From NCBI GenBank assembly GCA_040437565.1, contig JBDOQK010000008.1, positions 62,001 to 126,000 of the forward strand: a DNA stretch of 64,000 nt, in the 5' to 3' direction. The notes under the pieces were generated by a model that saw nothing but the letters and a program-made list of their open reading frames with translations, did no database searches and was not told the origin of the DNA. The position numbers and the translations under genes are program-made. Position 1 is the stretch's first letter; each line of letters opens with the position of its first letter. Source of the DNA: Albugo candida (Eukaryota). Shown piece after piece: positions 37,692 to 62,434 of this stretch.

Positions 37692-38845
37692 ATGGCGTCA
37701 TTTTTCGCTGGTAAATCACTCGTTTCAGACAAAGGCAGCTTTCTTCGACCGGACAGTATATTTCGTCGGTGGATTGAGCCAGTTTCCAACCCGAATGCCG
37801 TGTTTCCCGCAGGTACGTTTCTTACAAAAGAATCGAGGCCCTGCCTCACTGTCATATTACAGCAAAAGATCGGTACCATCTGTACATTTCGTACGCCTGT
37901 CCTTGGGCAACACGCTGTCTTGCAACTTTGTATCTTAAGAAATTGGACGAATTCATCGGGGTATCCGTAGTACATCCCGTGTTTCAGCGTACCCGACCGA
38001 ATGATCCTCAGGATAAACACGCTGGATGGGCGTTTGTTGATCCAAAGAAGACGCCAACCTTACCGGGTCCTACCGGGTTGGGATCTTACTCATCAGAAGG
38101 AGCGACTTTAGATACAATCAACCATTGTAACTTTGTCCGCGATCTGTACGAGATGTGCTACAAAGGCGAAGTACGATACACTGTGCCAATTTTGTGGGAT
38201 AAAAAGACGAAAACTATCATCAACAATGAATCGGCTGACATTGTGCGCATGTTTAATTCCGCTTTTGACTCTTTCGTGCTATCACCGACCATCGATCTAT
38301 ACCCAAACAAGCTCCAGAATCAAATCGATGAGATTAATGCGTGGGTGTATGATGGTATCAATAACGGAGTCTACAAATGTGGTTTTGCTCAATCTCAGCA
38401 AGCGTACGATGAAGCGGTCGAAACTCTTTTTGCATCTTTGGATAAAGCTGAAGACATCCTCACCTCTCAGCGATATCTTTGTGGAAGGTGCTTCACAGAG
38501 GCAGATTTGAGGCTGTTTATGACTCTGGTACGTTTCGACGAGGTGTATGTGGTGCATTTCAAAACGAATAAGAAGATGATTGAAGACTACCCCAACTTAC
38601 GAAATGTAAGAATCCTCCTGATCGCTAAAGCGCTTTGTGAACTGACTCTGACTCGTTTTCAGTATCTTCGTGAGATTTATCAGATGCCAGAAGTCAAGAA
38701 AGCGATCAATATGCAGCATATCAAGCTTCATTACTATGCATCTCATACTCACATCAATACATTTGGTATCGTCCCAATCGGACCAAATTACGACTACAAC
38801 ACAAAACATGATCGAAACAGGCTCAGCGCTGCCCCTACGAAGTAA
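37692..38845 (+). CDS. Glutathionyl-hydroquinone reductase (ECM4/YqjG, GST Xi/omega-like), three exons
   Basis: 'GSFLRPDSIFRRWI', 'RYHLYISYACPWATR', 'YTVPILWDKKTKTIINNESADIVRMFN', 'INNGVYKCGFA', 'LVRFDEVY', 'HIKLHYY'. An upstream in-frame ATG at 37614 is also possible. Confidence 0.92.
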
Positions 38846-38980: not shown

Positions 38981-40467
38981 ATGGCGTCCAAGTTTGCAAA
39001 GACGCTGCAGATTCCAAGTGAGTTCCCGGAGACAATGCGAGAATTTGCACGCGAGGTTTTACGTCAACAGGGAAAAGTAGAGACACGCGAAGCCATTATA
39101 CATTTTGGAGTTTCGTACTTTCAGAGTCGAATCGAGAAACGCGCAAAGGACACGGAAGAGCCAATTCCAACAGATGCTTCCGTAGCTGCTTATATGAAAC
39201 ATTCTGACGAGCGCATTTACGAGATTTTAAGAGAAATCGTACAAAAGGCGATACAACAAAACAACAACAACGCGCGCGTTCCGTATGATCTCCTGAAGGA
39301 AGTGATGTGTCAGATAAAAGAGATCTTAAATCTGTCTCCCATTGAGCTGAATGCGTTTTACGCTCAAGTGGCGGAAGATGAGGATGCGACCGTCGATCTC
39401 TCAGGTGATATTTTTGAGGATACTCTTACTGTGAAAGACTCATGAATTTGTGTTTGAGCAGAGATTCTTCCTCTCACATTCAAAGCAGCCAAATATTTGC
39501 GAAGTAGCAAAAACGAAAGGGAGTTGAGAGCTCAGAATCTTGAGAAGAAGTACCAATTACAAGATATGATGCTTCACGGAATGTTTCACGACGAGATGGA
39601 TAGTATTCTCCGAGATATTCTCCATCGAAATGAAGTGGTAAAAGCTGGAGTGTTGGGTCGAAAGCACTTGAAAGCGTGTCTGAGGGATGAGGATCTAGGC
39701 TTCTCCACCGCGGAAGTGAATGTTCTGATGGCTGAAGCAACAAATGACGTCAGTGATGACATGTCTGATTTCATTTCGATTTGTTACACAAAGCTCCGAG
39801 ACGTATTTTTGCATGGTATTATCGAATTTCCGAGTCAACGAGAAGCAGTATCAGACTCTTTATACAATGCATTCATCAACGTTGACGAAGACGGATCAGG
39901 TTTTCTGCCGACCTTTGAGCTCGTGAAAGCGTCTCGAGATGCTGATGTGGGCCTTACAAAAGTACAAATTGTCGTTTTAATGGCCGAAGCTGAAGAGAAT
40001 TCGCAGGGTCTCGTAAATTTTGAGAAATATGCGACTCGGGCCGCTTTGATGGGAGTCTTCTTCATAAGTTTCGAATATCAGCAGCAATTAGCCCAGTTTT
40101 CTCGAAAATTTCGTGCCACCAGCGCTTACTATCGAGTTTTCGACTTGGATCAGCCCGCATTTGAGGTATACTTATTTTTCGAAGTAAACTCATACAGCGT
40201 TTGATCGTTCCCTTGTCTTAGGATACTCTTTCAACGGCACTGGAAACCACAGACGCAGATCAACGTGGTGTCTTGGATCGTGATGAAATTGTGGAAGTAA
40301 TTCAAAGCTCATTTGGTGACATAACCATACGACAAATGCGATGTCTATTGGCATTTGCCGTTAGGAGTTCAAACAGTTTGGAATATGAATACCATTCAAT
40401 CATTCGAAACGCATTCCAAGCACTTCAGCGGCTTCAAGAGTATGACTCCATGATCGCAGAGATGTAG
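38981..40467 (+). CDS. RIIa dimerization/docking domain + EF-hand protein (radial spoke RSP7-like), three exons
   Basis: RIIa motif 'LQIPSEFPETMREFAREVLRQQ...IIHFGVSYF'. EF-hands include 'DEDGSGFLPTFE' and 'DADQRGVLDRDE'. Confidence 0.72.
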
Positions 40468-40539: not shown

Positions 40540-41726
40540 CTATTTTTGATACTCCCAAACTTCTGTCAGAAGCATCACAACATCGCTTAAACGCGTTGGA
40601 TGAGGTAAATCAAAGGTACGTTGTACGTTGTATAGCTCACTGAGAATTTCGTGTCGTGGAAGCGAGTATCTTAAGCTTGATCTAGAAGCTCACACAGAGA
40701 TCCTTAGCATTGAATCTTGTGGGCTTAATTTGTACCTTTGTTGTGTCTCTATTAGCCAAGACGATCGTAAAGTTCGCCATCGTGTCAAGCCGACATTTAG
40801 AAATGGTCCATTGCGTCCTTGTGGCCACCTTATATCAGTACAAGCATATAATTAGGTTCTATGCACACCAAATTAAGATTGCGCGAACCATGGATCAGCT
40901 ACAATGTCATGGAAATAAGATTCATAGAGACATTGCAATGAGTCTTACGTACTGTCACTCGTGCATGCGGCTACGGTGAATTGATGAAGATGCTGCGTTA
41001 GCCAGCCCAGTAGATACGCATAACATTGTGTAACTGCGTCTTCATTTGTGATATCAGAGAAAGCAAAATCACGTGTTTGATTCTTCATAACTCGCAGTAA
41101 CACTAAAGCTTTTTCAGCATCGTTCAAACCGTCATCTTCTTTTGTTTTCTCATTCAGCTTGCATATACTTTCAAACTCCATTACAATATATGGAAACGTT
41201 AAGTACGATGAGAAAGAATGCAACGTGTATCTACCTGCGCGGTGTGGCAAAATGAGCTCTTCTCGCCCACAACGATGAGAGTCGGTAACTTCGGTGTCCA
41301 CGTGGTTGCGGAGCGCAAACCGATTGGGCTTATTGCGACGATACAGTCGAATTGATTACACACGTCATTCAGATCGAAGACTGCATCAGCTCCTTCTTCG
41401 AATCCGATTGCTGCAAGGCGCTGTATATCATGAGATACGCGTAACCATTCCGCAACACGACCCATCTTTTCTCTGTTTCGGCAATCCTCTACGTCTTGAT
41501 CCGATATTTTCATTCTGACGATAATCACTTTGTACGCTTGCTCTGCTAATTTGTCCGCAAATGTAATGGCGGAATGGCAAAAAATGTTCTCCTCGGCAGA
41601 ATGAACAAGAATAACTCCCGTGACAACTCTACCAGCATGAGATGCAGGCTGCACCAAGTAAGCCGTCTCTGTACATGTGTCCAACAGCGGTATTTGAATC
41701 ACATAACCAGCTCCAGGAAGGATCAT
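40540..41726 (-). CDS. Dienelactone-hydrolase-like alpha/beta fold fused to a Gag1-like clamp (DUF4050) domain, multi-exon
   Basis: DLH-like 'AYLVQP...GVILVHSA...FADKLAEQAYKVI...LAAIGFEEGA...PTLIVVGEK'. The downstream exons (40828-40736, 40681-40540) read 'PFLNVGLTRWRTLRSSWL...FDLPHPTRLSDVVMLLTEVWE'. Confidence 0.65.
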
Positions 41727-41921
41727 CGCGATCCGAAAATTACNNNNNNNNNNNNNNNNNNNNNNNNNNNNNNNNNNNNNNNNNNNNNNNNNNNNNNNNN
41801 NNNNNNNNNNNNNNNNNNNNNNNNNNNNNNNNNNNNNNNNNNNCGAAAATTACATAAATCTAGGAAAGCAAGTATTTATTTCAGGATCTGATGTCATGCT
41901 GACTTGGAATCTATCAGCATC

Positions 41922-43675
41922 TTAAAAAAAAGCGTCATCGTCTTCTCGTTTCGGTACATTCCGATCAGTTGGTCGGTTATGATTAGAGCTCGGCATCGTA
42001 CGATATATTGCTGCAGAGATATCCGCGTTCGAATTGCTATTTCTCGCATTAGAGACTGGAACAACTTTGCTGGACGAAGGGCCTCCAATGTCGATTTCCT
42101 CCCATTTATTGGCGAGTTTGAGTTGTATTTCTTCTTCATCTGAATCTTCCGTGTTCCATGCAGATATCGGCGTCACAGACTGTTAGAAGAAAAGCGTTAC
42201 ATGCTGCCACATAGCCTTTATGAGAAAAAGAAAAGACTTACCAGGTCCACGTACTCACTTGAGTTCTCATTACTTCTAGACTTGAGAAGATATATGATGC
42301 CAGAAATGGTAATGAGAGCGCCCAAAGTGAACATATACAGGGAAGTCTTGGTCATGCTAACGTATTCGGCAAAGTACATGATCCCACCCAAGACGCTCAT
42401 GAGGATCCAAAAGCTCTGATATACTGGAACTACTACTAATGCATCGAAACGTGCCAACCCACCATTTAGGAAAAACACTTGGAAAACTAAGCAAATGATC
42501 AAGCCGCAAAGGATTAAGTATGGTGCCACATTAGTGAAAACTGCGGCACCGTCAGCGCCCCAAATCGCGCTTTTCAGCAGTTCCACAGTTGATTTTGCAA
42601 GTAAGACAGACTGACCTCCAAATGTACCAGCGATTCCTCCGTAGCACACAATGTGATAAATGCCATTTTCAAAGTTGTGAGTTTTCTCAATGTATTTCGT
42701 CAACCCGAAAAGCGCAGCGAGGAAAACAAATACGAAGAACATGTACGCATACATGGCATGTTGCTGATATAAATCAATAAGATCCTGCAATTCGTATTCC
42801 GGCGTGCTATGACCGGCAAAAATGACCGTCAAAATGACTCCAATAAATATAATTACTGTTGCGATAACACTTTGCTTTGTCACTTTTTCATTATGAAAGA
42901 ATGGAGCAATCATCATGTTCCACACAAGTGATAATGCCGCCAATGGAGCAAGAAGCGTCTGTGGAGCCATTCCAAAAGCCACAAAATCCAAGATGGAGCC
43001 CAGACATACCAACGAGAATCCAAGTAGCCACAATGGTTGCTGAAATGAGTTTCGTTTCAATCCAGAGGCTTCGTTTCGCGTCATTGACAGTTTCTGCAAG
43101 TTGATACCGATAGAATTGAAGATGGAGAAAATAAAAGCGATCAAGAATCCCGCGACCCACATTCCCATTGACGGTCCTTTATAATTTATTTTAAAACAGG
43201 CTTCCTTCGTTTCTATCTCGTACGGTGAAAACTGGTGGCAGACTTGTTCCAATTCGGGGCAAGTTGACAATGCCGCCTCGCTACAGGAAGACTGACAGAG
43301 CCGTTTGGATGTTCGACCAATTTCACAGACGGGAAATGTCACTGCGCAATGTATATTCTTCAGTACTTGACCACAAATGCTGCTCGTATTGTCCAAATTC
43401 ATACTATCGAGAAGCGTGGATAGCTCTTGGTCATTGAGATTGACGTATTTGGGAAGCCTTCGAAGTTGCGATTCATTTCGATTGATGTAGAGATTGTAAC
43501 CCGTTTCAGCAGCTTGATCCTGTGAATCCCAGTCATCTTTGGTCGCACACACTCCGTACGAAATATGACTGCAAAATGGTAAATCGGCTGGTGTTCCGCA
43601 TGTATTGGGACATTCGAATGCGATGGTAAGTAGTGAGTTAGAGCCAATGTACACTAAAAATGACAAATATCTCAT
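41922..43675 (-). CDS. NIPA-family Mg2+ transporter with N-terminal extracellular cysteine-rich (Frizzled/Mid1-like) domain
   Basis: NIPA motifs 'FNSIGINLQKLS', 'PLWLLGF', 'DFVAFGMAPQTLLAPLAALSLVWN', 'FLNGGLARFDALVVVPVYQ', 'GGIMYFAEY'. A 12-Cys N-terminal domain is in the same exon. The last exon is ~41922-42180. Confidence 0.85.
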
Positions 43676-44207: not shown

Positions 44208-45798
44208 ATGGGAGCAACTTCCAGCACGCAGAAGCTCACCGTGGATTGTATCATCTTAATGGAGCAACTTGAACCAAGCCAGATCGAGAAAAAACAAAAA
44301 ATAAATATGCGTATCAGTATCGAGAGACAATTGAGACGAAAGTGGCCAACGTGTAAGGTTGTGGCGTTTGGATCCTCCGCAAGGTTTGTCGATTCATTAT
44401 CATGAATGATGATCACCCACGGAAGGATGCATGTGTAGTGGCTTTGGATTCGGTGGTAGCGATTTGGATTTGGCGATATTTTTCGAGGATGTGAACTTGC
44501 AGCAGTATCATCAGCTCACACAAGTAGAAAAGAGCGCAATCTTGACTCAGGCTGCAGCAAGTATTGACCGAGATTTTGAGATACAAGAGTATGTTCCTAG
44601 TGCACGAGTGCCCATACTTAAACTATGGAATGCTAGATATCAGGTAGGGTTTTTTGGTCGTATTCTAGTTGTGCAATCTGACGATATACTTATGCAATAG
44701 ATCGCTTGCGACCTTTGTGTTGGGGGAGTCCATATTTTACTCAACACTGCAATGATGCGGTATTATGGGGAGCTAGATCGACGTGTGCGTCCACTCGCTT
44801 TTGCTGTCAAGTACTGGGCCAAAAGTCGTGGGATCAATGACTCTAGTAATGGTACTTTAAGCTCTTACGGTAAGACGGTACCAGTTGCTCGATGGCAAGA
44901 CTTGTACCATTTACGTGATAATCATTGTACAGGGTATTGTTTGCTTGTGATATTTTATCTGCAATCTCGTTTCGGTCCAACAATGATGCCCTGCAGTAAA
45001 AGTGTGTTTGGAGATGCATTAACAACATTTGACGATTTCGTGGCTTTACCAGAAAAATTAGAAAACTTGCCATTAAATGAAAGCATCTTTGATCGTAGCA
45101 CAGCGCTTCATATCGACTCGGTTGGCTCACTGCTCCAAGGCTTTTTCAGCTTTTACGCATCCGAATTTGACATGGAAAAAAGTGTGGTAAGCGTACGGGA
45201 AGGGATAAAAACCTGCAAAGAAGCGAGGTGGGAGTATCAAGTCCCATGGAGAATCAGTATTGAAGATCCTTTCGAATCAGCTCATGACGTTGCCCGTGTC
45301 ATCTTCAGTCGACGAGGTCAAGAAGTTATCATGCAAGAATTCAGGCGCGCGAACGAGCTTTTGAAACTAGGCCATCGTCTTTGCGCAATCTATGATGTAG
45401 AAATGAGCTCATGGCAAGCTAGATCAAGCTGCTACATTTGCAACGGATCGGATCACACGGCTCGACAGTGTGCCTTACGAACGGGACGTTTGGACATCGG
45501 ACTGTCGTGCTGGTACTGTGGGGAGGCAGGTCACATGAAAGCTTCATGTCCTCATTTTCAATTTCTTTACATCCCAAAAGAATGTGTGCATGTGAATAAA
45601 ATCACAAGAATCAATGCGGCTTCTTTCGGCTCACTTTGGAGATCATCCTCACTGAGAAGCGATTCTCCAACACACTCTGTACGTAAGAAAAAAAAGTATC
45701 GTCATAACACGACAATGACTGCAAAGAGCCGTCGGGAAAACAATACAATACAGTGGAAACAATTGCCATGTCTTTCGTCAATGACAAAGCTCGGTTGA
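44208..45798 (+). CDS. Terminal uridylyltransferase / non-canonical poly(A) polymerase (Cid1/TUT4-7-like) with two CCHC zinc knuckles
   Basis: 'FGSSA/SGFGFGGSDLD', 'ARVPILK', 'VKYWAKSRGINDSSNGTLSSY', 'ISIEDPFESAHDVAR', and knuckles 'CYICNGSDHTARQC' and 'CWYCGEAGHMKASC'. The start is uncertain. Confidence 0.87.
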
Positions 45799-47096: not shown

Positions 47097-50000
47097 TTAC
47101 AGCATCACATTGATATCGGCTTGGAGAAATGAGTCACCGGGTATCCTCGCCAGAATCCTACTAAATGGATCCACTGGAGGAGCGTACATCTCAAAGGTGA
47201 TGGAAGCGCTTGTGATGTTACTGAGATCCAATCTGAAGAATGTCCAACATCCGACTTCCTCCTCCTTACTCACCGTATTCTGATGACGAAGTTCCATTAC
47301 CGCAAAAGTGCCTACAAAGCCACAATGAAAAACAGCTTCTCCTTATCGAAAAATCACCCATACCTTGCATCAAATGCTCCAGTGGATGCTGGAGGTACCA
47401 TGTGTTTCCAAACCACCAGTAATTCGTCCCAGATTGGATCAACGACCTCGGAGTATGCTGAGGCTTTTCGACAATGCTTCCTCTGAAATCGACCGTATAC
47501 AAGCAAAAGTGTGGAGTTTCCATGAGCGGGCCTGTAGCGACTGCCACTGCACCAAGGAACACACCAATGTACGTGCTGTCAGGCAAATGGAAGGGACACC
47601 TTAGCAATGGCTCGTGTTCAGTCGGAGAGGTCGAATGAAGCTGTAGTAATTCTCTCATTTCATCGTCTTGTGTGAGGTCGCATGGACTTTGCCCATTCAA
47701 ATTCTTCACATCCAATGCCGCCCCTTTTTTGATCAACGTCTCCACCAAATCGTATCGATACAGCGACACCGCGTAATGGAGTGCGGTATCGCCATTCCCA
47801 TCGACAGCATTTATGTCCGCCCCCGCCTCAATGAGCCACACACAAACTTTGACAGCTTCAAATCCTTCATCGTCCTCGTTCTGAACCGCACAATGAAGAC
47901 TGATGAGTCCTGAGCCATTGGTCGTATTCACAAAATCTCGGCGCGAGCACCCATCAATACCAATCATATTCGCATTTGGCGGCACATTCGTAATGACTCG
48001 AACGCCTTTTACTTTGCGTATAGCCGCCATCCATTCCAGCACAATGCTATCGTTATCGGCGACAAAAGAGATCACACCTTCGGGGTTTCGAGAGCTCAGA
48101 AGCCTCGGCGATTGGATCTCAAATCCATACGCCACATGCGATAATCGTTTGATGGCTGTGTCACACAAATCGACGATTTTCAAAGGGATTTTATCCTTTG
48201 CAGTTTTGTAGAATGAGAGACACACTTGATCCACGACCACATACCGTTTGGTCGCCCATCGATTCCCACTGGCTTTGCGTAAATATCCTTCTTTGTACAC
48301 TTGTAGCACTATCGTATGCTGGGAAGAGAATGACGTGAGACGCTGGAGGTTCCCAGTTGGTGTCGATGAAATCAGCATTCGACGAGTCCGGCGTTTTGTT
48401 GGAGCGTTCTCGCCATTCTTGGAAGCAATGGGCGATGATAATTCAGGACCTGACAGATGTCGGTGGTACATTCGCGATTTCACGTCCACGGGATCGTCAA
48501 TTGTCTCCTCTGTTGTCGCACTGCTTCCCCGCAGATCGTATTCCGAAAGCCCGCTACTCGAGGAATTTGGACTGGAAATCCGATTTGCAGCCATCGCAAG
48601 AAGCTGAATCATATCCATATGCGCTAATTGGCAAGCGTAATGCAGCGGTGTGTTCCCCAAAGCGTCCTTACTGTGCACCAAATTCTCCATATTCGAGTTC
48701 TCTTCCAAGACAAATCGCGCCAAATTCTGATCGCCATTTCGAGCGGCGATATGGACCAGCGACATCATTTGCTGGTTGCGTATGCGCAGTATATTGGGAA
48801 GATCTCGCGCGATGGCTTGGACCTGAGCAGTATCGTACTCGATGGCAGCGTGAAATAGGCTTTGGGTCTTTTTTTTAAGGCGAAATCGCGTCAGGTAGCC
48901 GGCGATTACACTCACGAGAACTTGAAGAGCTTTACGACGCTGAGTCGCGCAACGTCTGCCAATTGTACGACGAGCGAGGGTTTGGATAAGAATGATTCGA
49001 TGGCGAGTACGATGATATCGGTGACGTTCCAATGAGCCTCGAAGGAACGCTTGCATCAAAGTCGCCTTTGCTCGGCATTTTAGAAATGCCCGTCGTGCGA
49101 GGTACTTTCGAGTCCATTTCTGAATGTTCACAGCCATTTCTTTCGCCTTTAGAAATTGGTTTCGCTTCATCATACGTCGAGTATGAGATTGCAGACGACA
49201 AATGCTCCATATCGTCTGTTTGTACAGCGCGCGTTGGACAAATCGGTGCCAAAGTGCTTGGAATCGAATAAAGCCACGCCTTTGAATGCGATATTTTGCG
49301 CGGATACTTTTCATCCGTACGATCGACTGACACAATACGACGCGATGATACTCCTTCCGATACGTTTGTTTCGCGGCCAGCATCCGGAAAATCGCTTGGA
49401 CTCGTATGGCCATTCGTTTCTCACGTAGAAAGCGCCGACGAACGAGGCCTCGGCGGATCATAGACTGAGACTTGATCGTAGCATTTCTTCCCTTTACGTA
49501 CTCCGTCCGGACTTTATAGGCTCGTATGCACGCTTGGATCCTTGTGACTTGCCGTATCGTACGCTTGTATCGATTTCGAGCAAGAAACCCTCGTGCAAGA
49601 CTTGCTATTTGGACTTGAGCGAGATTCTGCTTGAGTGCGCGCATCCTGGCGCTTTTTCCGTATTTGAGTCGAGCAAGAAAACCTCTTCCAGCCGCATGTA
49701 AGCAGAGAGCAGAACGTTTCTTCGACAGATACGTTGCTCGAGCTTGGAACCCTTTGTAGCGGGATGCGATACGACAGGCTGCATCGCGTTGGTCTCGATA
49801 CAGTCGATATTGATGCCACATTCGTGCGGCGCTGGCGATCGCTGTTGCTGCTTTTTTCTGTCTCCGAAAAGCTTTGCGGGCTAAATGCATTCGGAATACT
49901 GACCCAACTTTTGTGCTTGCATTTGGAAGGTTTCGGAGGTACCACGCATATCGTCTAGCTATTCGTCCACGCACACGACTCTGAACGATGATAACACGCT

Positions 50001-52824
50001 TCCGAATGCTTTGGTATCGCCGATTTTGCAAGAAGGCTCGAGCCAGAGCGTTCAGTCGAGTGACACATCGACAAAGTCGTAAGAAATTTCTTCTCGCCAA
50101 ACTCATTCGAAGCATTGCCTGCGTCCAAACGATTAGCGCATACATCTTCCGATATCTTATCCGTTGCCGAATTCCACGCTCGTACTTTTGTATCGTCGTC
50201 GCTGCATTTTCTTTGAGTGTTCGAACACGTTGATCCAATAATCGAAGTTGTCCATCGCGAAGAAATACCTTTCGATGTCCTAATTGCCAATTTTCACGCT
50301 GTAAATGCCACAGAATTCTCTCACAAAGATCCTTATCGCTGCATAAACAGCTTTGCTGGCCAAAACGACCCGTTCGTGTGAGGATCTCATAAGTCGAGTA
50401 AAACTCACGAAATAAACGCCGGACGGGGTACCCAGACCTTCGAATATGAACAGTTTCCATGACACCGAGGTAGATAAGCTGATCCAGGATCAAATTCGCA
50501 TTCCATCCCTGTGGGAACCGTAGATTGTTGGGCTTGACACATCGAATGTATGACGGGGCTGTGGCTCTGAGTTCCTGCATAAGATGAGCCATTTGATCGC
50601 GAAATTTCCGTCCGACTGTCATTGTTCCCATCATTTTATTTGAGCATTTTCGAGGTCTTCGCATTCCATGCGCATTACCGGAATTACGCGAGTGTCCCGA
50701 TTGTGATGCGATAATTGGATTTTTGCTCAAATTAACTGGAAACAATTCACGTAGAAATTCAAGTTTGGAGTTGTGGACGAGAGATATGAGATCATGATGG
50801 AGCGAGTCGTCATTCTTCTCCAAAAAGCCCGTGATCGAGTATGTCACTTTGCCAGCATAGTGCTCAATGATGAATTGATCGTTTGCAAAACGCGGTTTAG
50901 AGTAATACGAGCCAGAGTGATTCAGATGCGTCTGATGAAGCTTTTTGATGAAATTCTCGTCGCTAGCACGTCGACCGAGTAACGCTTGTTCGTCCAAAAG
51001 AGGAAGAATACCGATAGGTTTCTTATCGATCAATTCCAAACACGGCGTGTTGTCTTTGAATTCGAGTCGCGAGAAATCGATTCCTTCGTCCACGTAAACT
51101 TGCTGCTCATATACAAAGACGTGCTGGTTGAATTGCTGTTGGAGCATTTCGTTAGCATAATTGATACAAAGCTGTTCAAAAGAATTCGATTGTAGAATTT
51201 CAAAACCGAAAATATCTAAAATCCCAATGAATTTCTGATTATTTGATAATGCTACATGCTCCTCTTCAGACGTCATCGTTTGTAGCTTGGATCCATTCGT
51301 CTCCAGAAAAGCATTCGCTTGACTTGCCAGATCCTTGGTCGACTTGTTTATTTGGACCACAAGCCAGTCAAATAGCTTACTGAATACATCTTTAGCGAGT
51401 CCATTCCGGGATTTCGCAGCTTCTATTGCATTAAGTGAGATTTCAGCCACACTTCCACGAGCTCCAGCCGACATTGTTCGTTTTGTGAGAGCAAAATCCA
51501 GCTCGGACGGCTTAACTTGCAAGATTCCAGCCAGCTCTGCTACTTGCATAGGATCCTGGCAATACGCTTCAAATTTGGCGTTTTCTTTGAACGAAATGTT
51601 GCCGAGTTTGAGTACGACCGCTACCAGCGTGAAAATGGAAAAGTACGTTTCTTTCGAAATTCCAATGGTTTCCATGGCTTCTGTGACATACTTGAATTCT
51701 TTTTTGTCGTTGATTTCAGGACACTGTATACATTTTCCTTGATTCAGATAGCAGTAGTCATTGGCTGGTAGTAAACAGAGCTTTTCCTTGTCTGGAGGCG
51801 AAAGACCGGCACATAACTGATAGAAAATGTGATAATTGCGTTCAGATTCAGCACAACCGACGATTCTGGACTTTTCGAGTAGAAAGTGGGAAGTGGTCGC
51901 ACCGCTGATGGTACCATCAGAGTGGTAGAAAATCTTGATGAATTTCCCAAAACGTGAACTATTGTCGTTACGTATTGTTTTTGCATTGCCAAATGCCTCT
52001 AGAATGGGATTACTGTGCAGTACACACTGCTCCACACTTGACGTGCTCTTGTATTTTGTATTATAGTTTTTATTGGATGAAACGGTATTCCTCAAGACTG
52101 TGTTGAGTTCATTGAGGGTCGATGGATTTTCGGACTGTAAAATTGAAGATTCGAGATACGATTCACGTTTCCCATGTTCGCTTATGTTTGCCAAATACTA
52201 TACAAAAAATTAAAAAGTCGGAACGTGTAGCGTATAGTGACCTAATATACCTGCATGATATATTTCGACGCTTCAGTCTTACCGGCTCCAGACTCTCCGG
52301 AGATCAAAATTGATTGGCATTTTCCCTGTGCACAAAGCGCATGATACGCGTTATGTGCGGTCGTGTATACGTGAGGAATTGGGTGTTTAGCTCTCTCTAA
52401 GGGATCCACATCTTGGATATTGTATAGCATCGGAATGGTTTTGTAAGGATTAATGGAAATAAGGATATCGCCCGTAAATGTCTACAGAATCGGATTGAGC
52501 AAAGTTGTAAACAGGTGGTCTTCAAAAAAAGTAAATACGTGCATAGATCTTATCAGATAGATAGCGACGACGAAGCAGATCGAGAAGTGGAGCTTGATGC
52601 AAATTATCCATTTCAGATAAGTTACTGAGATCCAGTCCGTGTGTTGGATCGTAAGGATGTACTTGATCGCTGGTAAGCGTTTGTTCTTCATCTGTTCCTG
52701 AGACTACTACATGAAGGGTAGTACCTTCATCTTCTACGATTGTGCCTAATTGCCATACACTACGAGGATCTGGACACCAGACTCGCTCTCCTTCTTTTCG
52801 TATGGACCGTTTCGAAGCATCCAT
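47097..52824 (-). CDS. Heterokont-type myosin: motor + many IQ motifs + ankyrin-PH-ankyrin + AIDA-like C2 tail, multi-exon
   Basis: Motor motifs 'GESGAGKT', 'LEAFGNAKTIRNDNSSRFGK', 'LDIFGFE', 'YIRCVKPN'. A long IQ-like array follows, then ankyrin 'GNTPLHYAC' and 'GDTALHYAV', and PH 'KEGYLRKASGNRWATKRYVVV...EWMAAIR'. Confidence 0.92.
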
Positions 52825-61834: not shown

Positions 61835-62434
61835 ATGGCACCATCGCATCAATTAATTTACTTTGATCTCCCGGGCCGAGCCGAAATTGTTCGCGTCAGC
61901 TTTGCGTGTGGTAAAGTGCCTTTCGAGGATAAACGTATCTCCAAAGAAGAATTCGCCGCTCTTAAACCAACACTTCCGCTCGGACAAGTTCCTGTCTTAA
62001 AGGTCGATGGAGTTATATATTCTCAGACTATGGCTATGGTCCGCTATGCTTCGATCCTTTCGGGAATCTACCCAACTGATGCGTTGCAAGTTTTGAAGGC
62101 TGAATCGGTAATCGGATGCTACGACGAGCTTGCAGGACCAATTGTGGAAATCATGCATCTTATTAAAGATGAAGGCATTAAAGCAGCAAAGACGAAAGAT
62201 TTAGTGGAGAAGCAATGCCCCAAGATTATCGGGTATATCCAAAATATGGTGAGTGGCAAGTTCTTCTTGGGTGATAAGATTTCGATCGCAGATGTGGCGA
62301 TTTTCAGTATGATTGATGACTATTTGGCTGCAATCAAAGAATTTGACGTTTCCAAATATCCAAAGATACAAAGTATCGTCGAAAATGTCAAAGCTGAACC
62401 GAACGTTGCCGAATATCTTAGTAAAAGAGGTTGA
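61835..62434 (+). CDS. Glutathione S-transferase (sigma-like), array copy 5
   Basis: 'LIYFDLPGRAEIVRV', 'PLGQVPVL', 'QTMAMVRY'. Confidence 0.93.
   Translation: MAPSHQLIYFDLPGRAEIVRVSFACGKVPFEDKRISKEEFAALKPTLPLGQVPVLKVDGVIYSQTMAMVRYASILSGIYPTDALQVLKAESVIGCYDELAGPIVEIMHLIKDEGIKAAKTKDLVEKQCPKIIGYIQNMVSGKFFLGDKISIADVAIFSMIDDYLAAIKEFDVSKYPKIQSIVENVKAEPNVAEYLSKRG

Follow-up and report, generated by a model that had tools for sequence, protein, structure and literature searches.

Our analysis of a 64,000-nucleotide stretch of Albugo candida DNA (the window; positions 62,001 to 126,000 of contig JBDOQK010000008.1) concerns a two-exon gene that runs from 43675 to 41922 on the minus strand, and whose 563-amino-acid product carries a Frizzled-type cysteine-rich domain (CRD) in front of a membrane carrier of the NIPA family. 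The product has the same length as its Albugo laibachii ortholog, P0002. The features of the gene are as follows (the basis of each is in parentheses):

42242..43675, minus strand: exon 1, with leader, CRD, linker, whole NIPA domain and YxxL motif, residues 1-478 (translation, contig alignment)
43619..43675, minus strand: probable signal peptide, residues 1-19, marginal in Albugo candida (hydropathy)
43196..43612, minus strand: 12-cysteine Frizzled-type CRD, residues 22-160, nearest to the MuSK/ROR2 CRDs, with two N-glycosylation sequons (profile, model, fold search)
43157..43195, minus strand: linker from C160 to W173 of TM1, with conserved Y165-x-G167-P168 (alignment of 61)
42275..43156, minus strand: NIPA (SLC57, DMT fold) domain, nine membrane helices (profile, NIPA2 mapping, model)
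42794..42811, minus strand: outer 4-5 loop motif H-x-[ST]-P-x-Y, residues 289-294, at the place of the NIPA2 acidic staple (alignment)
42242..42253, minus strand: YxxL sorting-type motif, Y475-L478, in the cytosolic tail (subfamily comparison)
42180..42241, minus strand: 62-nt GT..AG intron, containing the stop earlier taken as the gene end (translation, contigs)
41922..42179, minus strand: exon 2, with an acidic cluster, low-complexity tail, acidic di-hydrophobic C-terminus and stop (ortholog comparison, contigs)

The frame 43675-42221 (minus strand) encodes the hydrophobic leader, the 12 cysteines (residues 22-160; 43612-43196) and the NIPA domain (residues 174-467), and its translation places no intron between the CRD and NIPA parts. 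The initial annotation had described one uninterrupted exon ending at 42218. This is right for the leader, CRD and NIPA domain but not for the gene as a whole, whose second exon it overlooked; the stop it used lies inside the 62-nt intron, which rules out a gene end at 42218, and the true stop is at 41922. Four sequencing runs were compared (X1, X4, X5 and X7; X1 and X4 come from one study, and that the runs are RNA is the tool's guess, which no record states). The X1 and X4 contigs omit exactly the 62 intron bases (42241-42180), and a single 2040-nt X1 contig spans CRD, NIPA domain and tail; no splice joint was seen at the intron in the X7 contigs, and the X5 contigs are pieces from elsewhere in the gene. 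Seven coding positions differ between the X1/X4 contigs and the gene; six of these differences are silent, and the remaining one falls in the tail. The single frame, the spliced contigs (one of them across all parts) and the full-length homologues rule out a gene-model artefact as the origin of the fusion, as the initial annotation had maintained, and the CRD-NIPA fusion is genuine. A run of N at about 41744-41843 of the window, about 80 bases beyond the stop codon, leaves the coding sequence untouched. The neighbouring genes look unrelated to it; they are a glutathione S-transferase (38153-38845, plus strand), an EF-hand protein (39566-40204, plus), a frame without clear family (41199-41726, minus), and a Cid1-type nucleotidyltransferase with zinc knuckles (44752-45798, plus). 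One long exon of the window (47266-51675, minus) encodes a myosin head with IQ repeats, together with ankyrin repeats, an Aida-type C2 domain and a PH domain.

A whole-protein homologue search gave 131 matches, of which the best 120 were used; 61 homologues with a near-complete N-terminus, drawn from the matches listed, were aligned. All twelve cysteines noted originally are real features of the family, since each is kept in 58-61 of these 61 full-length homologues. The Frizzled-type assignment, for which a Foldseek comparison had been suggested, is supported by the fold: when the CRD model (pLDDT 94) was compared with 48,161 chains, ranks 1-11 were all Fz-family CRDs. The best match was MuSK (Z 9.1, rmsd 3.1, 108 aligned residues), with a second MuSK entry at Z 7.7, Nrk at rank 3 and ROR2 at Z 7.6; the tool warns that Z values of 7-8 can be common, and the case is made by a top block drawn from one family together with the cysteine pattern. 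Frizzled and Smoothened follow at Z 5.0-6.1. Foldseek with the CRD listed 35 rows, all of them Fz-family and none reaching E 0.001; with the full-length model it returned solely meaningless ABC-transporter rows (TM about 0.13). By sequence, the CRD scores 23.4 bits (E 9e-5) against PF01392 (Fz), below the curated cut-off of 32.1 bits, and 26 of 27 CRDs of family members match Fz at E up to 1 (best E 8e-8). All 45 matches of the CRD profile in the PDB are Fz-family. In the ESM Atlas the CRD leads, at under 0.9, to Fz clusters, and the whole protein to a mostly oomycete NIPA cluster of 104 members. With the CRD as its single query sequence HMMER found six proteins, and a CRD-profile search of longer proteins gave four, each a NIPA fusion; the sensitivity of both is too low to rule out other architectures.

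The initial annotation had also likened the domain to Mid1/NALF, and this part must be given up. None of the 27 CRDs matches the Mid1 family (PF12929) at E up to 1, FAM155A reaches only Z 3.6 (rank 24) against 9.1 for MuSK, and the genome has a separate Mid1-family gene (L015:1453-2136, minus strand; PF12929 51.2 bits against a cut-off of 28.6, and 12.7 bits with the CRD profile), so membership of the CRD in Mid1/NALF is ruled out. A 659-bp contig (L014, G000:C1671) that matches the N-terminal part of Mid1 has 35% GC, against 41-43% at two other measured loci, and may be a fungal contaminant of the assembly. A free-standing, secreted-type Fz protein (L013:1168-1917, plus strand) scores 34.2 bits with the CRD profile and is, among the loci examined, the nearest non-fused relative by cysteine pattern (hhalign 88.8%, E 2.5e-6); it is a possible source of the CRD of the fusion.

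From the model we infer that C26, C35, C101, C110, C117, C127, C131, C139, C146 and C160 are the ten Fz cysteines, and the strand positions in the model suggest that C22-C43 forms an extra disulfide beyond the Fz set. The rest of the domain is loosely held. Inserts of 23-61 residues occur between C43 and C101, the C139-C146 segment ranges from 6 to 28 residues, and conserved non-cysteine positions are few, W49, D53 and F/Y60 of the first helix among them; median identity between homologues is 31% for the CRD versus 50% for the carrier. Palmitoleate and cholesterol are bound by the CRDs of Fz and Smoothened, and the Drosophila Nrk CRD buries a fatty acid, while the available text of PMC11219042 reports the MuSK and ROR2 CRDs as lacking a lipid groove. 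A Frizzled-type fold therefore does not by itself imply lipid binding, and the idea of lipid sensing is weakened, the nearest folds being those of MuSK and ROR2, reported as groove-less.

The membrane part is a complete NIPA domain, as first proposed: the match to PF05653 covers profile positions 4-293 of 295 (E 5.5e-36, 124.7 bits versus a cut-off of 26.2), and the profile match to human NIPA2 has E 7e-31. The model of the full-length protein (pLDDT 88, pTM 0.80) has nine membrane helices whose best fold matches are DMT carriers (Z 8-10), and its pTM hints at a defined placement of the CRD. Human NIPA2, a dimer, carries Mg2+ and nucleotides passively and is stated to prefer nucleotides; its E70 is a ligand of site 1 (Mg2+/adenine), and E70A cripples the protein (PMC13500462). 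The cavity was mapped on 117 aligned NIPA domains, namely the 120 listed minus seven that were too short or had no anchor motif, plus four frames from this genome; 92 of these rows have a CRD (proteins with partial N-termini included) and 25 do not. The equivalents of NIPA2 S192, K197, Q232, Y252, F268 and E270 are kept in 89-92 of the 92 CRD rows. Taken as a set, the NIPA2-type Mg2+/nucleotide site (E70, N73, G89, S92, Q232, Y252, Y253 and F256) is not conserved: E70 is Ser and N73 is Asp in 92/92, G89 is Ala in 85/92, Y253 is Gln and F256 is Trp in 90/92, and S92 appears as S/T. The cavity of the Albugo protein is lined by S227, D230, S356, K361, Q399, Y419, Q420 and W423, of which D230 is a negatively charged residue at the place of NIPA2 site 2. 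Site 1 is thus not conserved here, and the acidic group has shifted one turn, to site 2. Most CRD-less relatives share the cavity changes, S227/D230 included, which rules out this swap as a hallmark of the fusion; the changes mark the subfamily instead. The strict conservation of the cavity argues for an active carrier with a shifted cargo, and by analogy with NIPA2 a nucleotide, Mg-nucleotide or related metabolite is more likely than free Mg2+. The initial annotation spoke of a divalent-cation transporter; NIPA family membership stands, and Mg2+ as cargo is weakened by the nucleotide preference of NIPA2 (PMC13500462) and by the Ser at E70. We would thus class the protein as a NIPA family member by sequence and fold that departs from the NIPA2 site, with a CRD of Frizzled fold.

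The leader was correctly recognised at the outset, although it is marginal in the Albugo candida protein (8-residue hydropathy 2.07); scored by simple hydropathy without a shuffled control, it reaches 2.0 or more in 51 of the 57 homologues with a leader, the other four of the 61 being too short for scoring. The linker is unusually regular, with 13 residues from C160 to W173 in 60/61 homologues (14 in one), and Y165 and G167 each kept in 60/61. Predicted inside loops have mean K/R counts of 4.6, 3.2, 3.5, 0.8 and 5.0 and outside loops 0.9, 0, 0.9, 2.3 and 0.8. N-glycosylation sequons occur in the CRD of 56/61 homologues, yet also in the tails of 34/61, which makes them a weak marker of topology. 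The N-terminus of NIPA2 is outside (PMC13500462), and this topology, the leader, the positive-inside bias and six likely disulfides together indicate that the CRD lies outside the cell or in a lumen, in keeping with the extracellular placement predicted earlier.

In the tail, the YxxL motif is present in 27/29 members of the subfamily of this gene and in 0/21 of a paralogous subfamily; downstream of it, members of the former have an acidic cluster and often an acidic di-hydrophobic end. YxxL and acidic-cluster motifs in tails are marks of cycling through Golgi and endosomes. Both CRD-NIPA subfamilies occur in oomycetes, and the second CRD-NIPA gene of this genome (L010, G000:C62:70319-73729) belongs to the paralogous one; it has several introns, even inside the CRD, and its tail lacks YxxL and has a KRRSITF motif. 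Of the roughly eight NIPA-type genes in the genome, two carry a CRD, one is joined to phospholipase D and the others are plain. The phospholipase D fusion (L005:1144-3900, plus strand) has a NIPA domain and two phospholipase D domains, corresponds to the TM-PLD of PMC3056787, and lacks the S/D pair in its cavity. Two identical 125-amino-acid first-exon frames of a plain NIPA gene (L006 and L007, G000:C48:165291-167321), about 1.7 kb apart, reflect a recent duplication or an assembly error.

The initial annotation had suggested a survey of stramenopiles, and among the matches listed the same architecture is indeed present in oomycetes, Triparma and labyrinthulids: those named as full-length come from Albugo, Pythium, Phytophthora, downy mildews, Saprolegniales, Triparma and Mucochytrium, and the Hondaea match is partial. 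There is no sign that the fusion acts in virulence or as an effector, as free-living relatives carry it too. NIPA-domain trees, in which the outgroup is distant and the root unsure, need five changes of CRD label; their starred branches force four under LG (46 rows) and three under a mixture model (38 rows). A single clade of CRD-bearing rows is rejected (p-AU 5.6e-55), which rules out a single origin without loss. Four CRD-less proteins (P0045, P0047, P0049 and P0051) nest among CRD proteins with support of 100/99; in one frame they have a leader, a short cysteine-free acidic stretch and TM1, they keep the cavity, and they are the clearest case of CRD loss. The CRD-less P0108 group, on a long branch and with a changed TM2, is sister to the Triparma branch (100/98) and represents a second loss. 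For the third case, the CRD-less labyrinthulid group, support for nesting falls from 97/93 to 81/90 under the mixture model. With NIPAs that lack a CRD placed within the family on two or three occasions, the CRD looks accessory. The simplest reading of these trees is that an early stramenopile gained the CRD once and that it was lost repeatedly afterwards, and the fixed length of the linker also favours one origin.

In NIPA2 a hinged lid, made of the tops of TM1, TM2 and TM3, is stapled by E133-E135 of the 4-5 loop together with K197, and E134A impairs transport (PMC13500462). In the ungapped register of our profile alignment E134 aligns with T291, and this position is S/T, followed by Pro, in 92/92 CRD rows; it is Glu in 7/7 rows of the CRD-less labyrinthulid group and in two of the four genes of this genome without a CRD. 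Of the CRD rows, 91/92 have the loop motif H-x-[ST]-P-x-Y/F, versus 6/25 CRD-less rows, and four of these six are probable N-truncated gene calls, whose removal leaves 2/21. The pairwise alignment opens a gap and pairs NIPA2 E133 and E135 with E293 and E295, two glutamates that are kept, so the register is ambiguous; P0120, read by eye outside the alignment, agrees with the ungapped one. On average the loop still has 2.5 acidic residues. Since support for nesting of the Glu-bearing group falls to 81/90 under the mixture model, a single evolutionary event may lie behind the Glu/CRD contrast. P0045, P0047, P0049 and P0051 (4/4) keep T-P; therefore the loop motif does not strictly require a CRD. 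As a substitute staple, CRD residue E118 (kept in 60/61) is unsupported, Smoothened and the free Fz protein L013 being acidic after that cysteine as well.

The reading we prefer, with a confidence slightly short of even, is that the CRD acts as an outer cap, fixed to the lid helix, and adjusts the outer gate of a carrier that passively moves nucleotides or related solutes. With its signal peptide the protein would have the CRD either outside the cell or on the lumenal side of an organelle, and the short fixed linker would fasten the CRD to the upper end of TM1 in a passive carrier of NIPA fold that is probably dimeric. There, on the outer face, the CRD would assume or tune the stapling of the TM1-3 lid, and the stapling it sets would govern how easily the outer gate opens; it would be a regulator that the transport path does not need, and the tail suggests cycling via the Golgi or endosomes. 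The gene, its splicing, the conservation, the fold class, the residue changes and the losses rest on direct observation; topology, docking on the lid, dimer, cargo, location and any gating are parts of this picture that we infer. It draws on a linker held at 13 residues in 60/61 despite a median CRD identity of 31%, on the hint of a defined CRD position in the pTM of 0.80, on S/T at the E134-aligned position in CRD rows and Glu in the CRD-less labyrinthulid group and two of four plain genes of this genome, on the loop motif in 91/92 rows with a CRD and 2/21 without (fragments set aside), and on the lid, staple, N-out topology and nucleotide preference of NIPA2 (PMC13500462). A working carrier is to be expected because the six cavity equivalents, from S192 to E270, are kept in 89-92/92, and the nested CRD-less proteins that keep the cavity point to a non-essential regulator. 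Against such a cap stand the ambiguous loop register, the acidic residues still in the loop, the T-P of four CRD-less proteins and the 81/90 nesting, and its nucleotide cargo would be taken over from human NIPA2, a distant protein whose E70, which binds adenine, is absent here.

Several of the same observations could be read otherwise. A CRD that serves in folding, sorting or partner binding (across the dimer, for example, or to another surface protein) and does not act on the gate would explain why it is more variable than the carrier (31% versus 50%) and takes 23-61-residue inserts, and would agree with the groove-less CRD of ROR2, which acts via partners (PMC11219042), with the four proteins that lost the CRD yet kept leader and cavity, and with the different tail motifs of the two subfamilies. 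We think this rather unlikely, though a serious contender: a module for sorting or binding alone would have no need of a linker whose length is fixed (60/61), and the outer loop motif decays in most CRD-less rows. It is plainly less probable that the protein is a ligand-gated carrier or transceptor whose CRD signals to the lid on binding a peptide, small molecule, lipid or sterol. Such a role fits the lipid ligands of Fz and Smoothened and the buried fatty acid of Nrk (rank 3), attachment to the lid helix, and the conserved W49, D53 and F/Y60, but MuSK and ROR2 chains, reported as groove-less in the available text of PMC11219042, make up three of the four top matches by structure, the C139-C146 length varies from 6 to 28, and few non-cysteine positions are conserved. 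A bolder form, in which an ancient stramenopile Fz-type domain binds an outside lipid or peptide, replaces the acidic staple and opens or locks the lid of a nucleotide carrier, is a little more doubtful still; if true, it would be a Frizzled/Smoothened-like sensor coupled to transport instead of to a seven-helix receptor. The form given by the initial annotation, in which a Mid1/NALF-like subunit built into a Mg2+ transporter would sense divalent cations or gate their passage, now seems quite improbable. NIPA2 does transport Mg2+ (PMC13500462), D230 supplies a negative charge at its site 2, and the CRD and the genome's Mid1-like protein (12.7 bits) have an N-terminal motif in common; but the lack of any Mid1 match among the CRDs (0/27), the rank of FAM155A (24, Z 3.6), the genome's own Mid1 gene, the higher score of the free Fz protein (34.2 bits) and the Ser that replaces site-1 ligand E70 in 92/92 all tell against it.

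The architecture is already visible in databases, where orthologues carry the automatic name 'FZ domain-containing protein'. The surveys of Pei and Grishin from 2012 and of Seidl from 2011 may list it. We found no published work on a Frizzled-CRD and NIPA fusion in oomycetes in a literature search, the PMC2705460 supplements and 12 of the 26 supplementary files of PMC3681718. In its available text PMC3056787 names three Phytophthora DUF803 proteins merely as TM-PLD relatives, and that of PMC13022745 gives a NIPA phylogeny without stramenopiles and states that the regulation of NIPA carriers is not known. The question of NIPA cargo has recently been reopened by the NIPA2 structures, and the present family, with its changed cavity and its natural pairs with and without an outer domain (P0045, P0047, P0049 and P0051 are natural CRD-deletion variants), makes regulation and cargo testable. 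A Frizzled-type CRD on a transporter, far from animals, also bears on the roles of CRDs beyond Wnt and Hedgehog signalling.

Compared with known systems, the Albugo protein is like human NIPA2/SLC57A2 (PDB 9Z6N, 9Z7R, 9Z7S and 9Z7T; PMC13500462) in its NIPA domain of nine helices with the N-terminus out, and keeps S192, K197, Q232, Y252, F268, E270 and the G69 hinge. It differs in having a CRD where NIPA2 has no ectodomain, in the changes E70 to S, N73 to D, G89 to A, Y253 to Q, F256 to W and F28 to I/L, in the replacement of hinge glycines 25/26 and 67, and probably in the exchange of the acidic patch for S/T-P. The oomycete TM-PLD (DUF803/NIPA plus phospholipase D; PMC3056787) is another NIPA-domain fusion from these organisms, but there the added domain is a C-terminal enzyme and not an outer CRD; P0022 most likely received its label 'Pi-TM-PLD' by transfer via the common DUF803 domain. 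The same architecture, at 36-64% identity among the matches listed, is found in the 'FZ domain-containing' orthologues of Phytophthora, Saprolegnia, Aphanomyces, Triparma and Mucochytrium. Mid1/NALF is likewise a CRD that caps a membrane protein, as a separate subunit of four-domain channels. Mid1/NALF (FAM155A) is a distant CRD relative with a similar N-terminal LPFC..Y....D..A motif, but its family does not match our CRD, its Z is 3.6, and Mid1 is encoded elsewhere in the genome (L015). The CRDs of MuSK and ROR2/Nrk (9LGG, 3HKL, 9FSE and 7ME4) have the same fold (Z 7.6-9.1, rmsd 3.1-3.9 over 106-111 residues) and C3-C7 core cysteine spacing; theirs stand in receptor kinases beside Ig or Kringle domains, whereas the Albugo CRD has two extra cysteines, is 14-18% identical to them and is directly joined to a multi-pass carrier. 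In overall plan the protein resembles Frizzled and Smoothened, with a signal peptide, CRD, short linker, multi-pass membrane domain and cytosolic tail, although its fold scores with them are lower (Z 5.0-6.1) and a DMT carrier stands where they have a seven-helix receptor.
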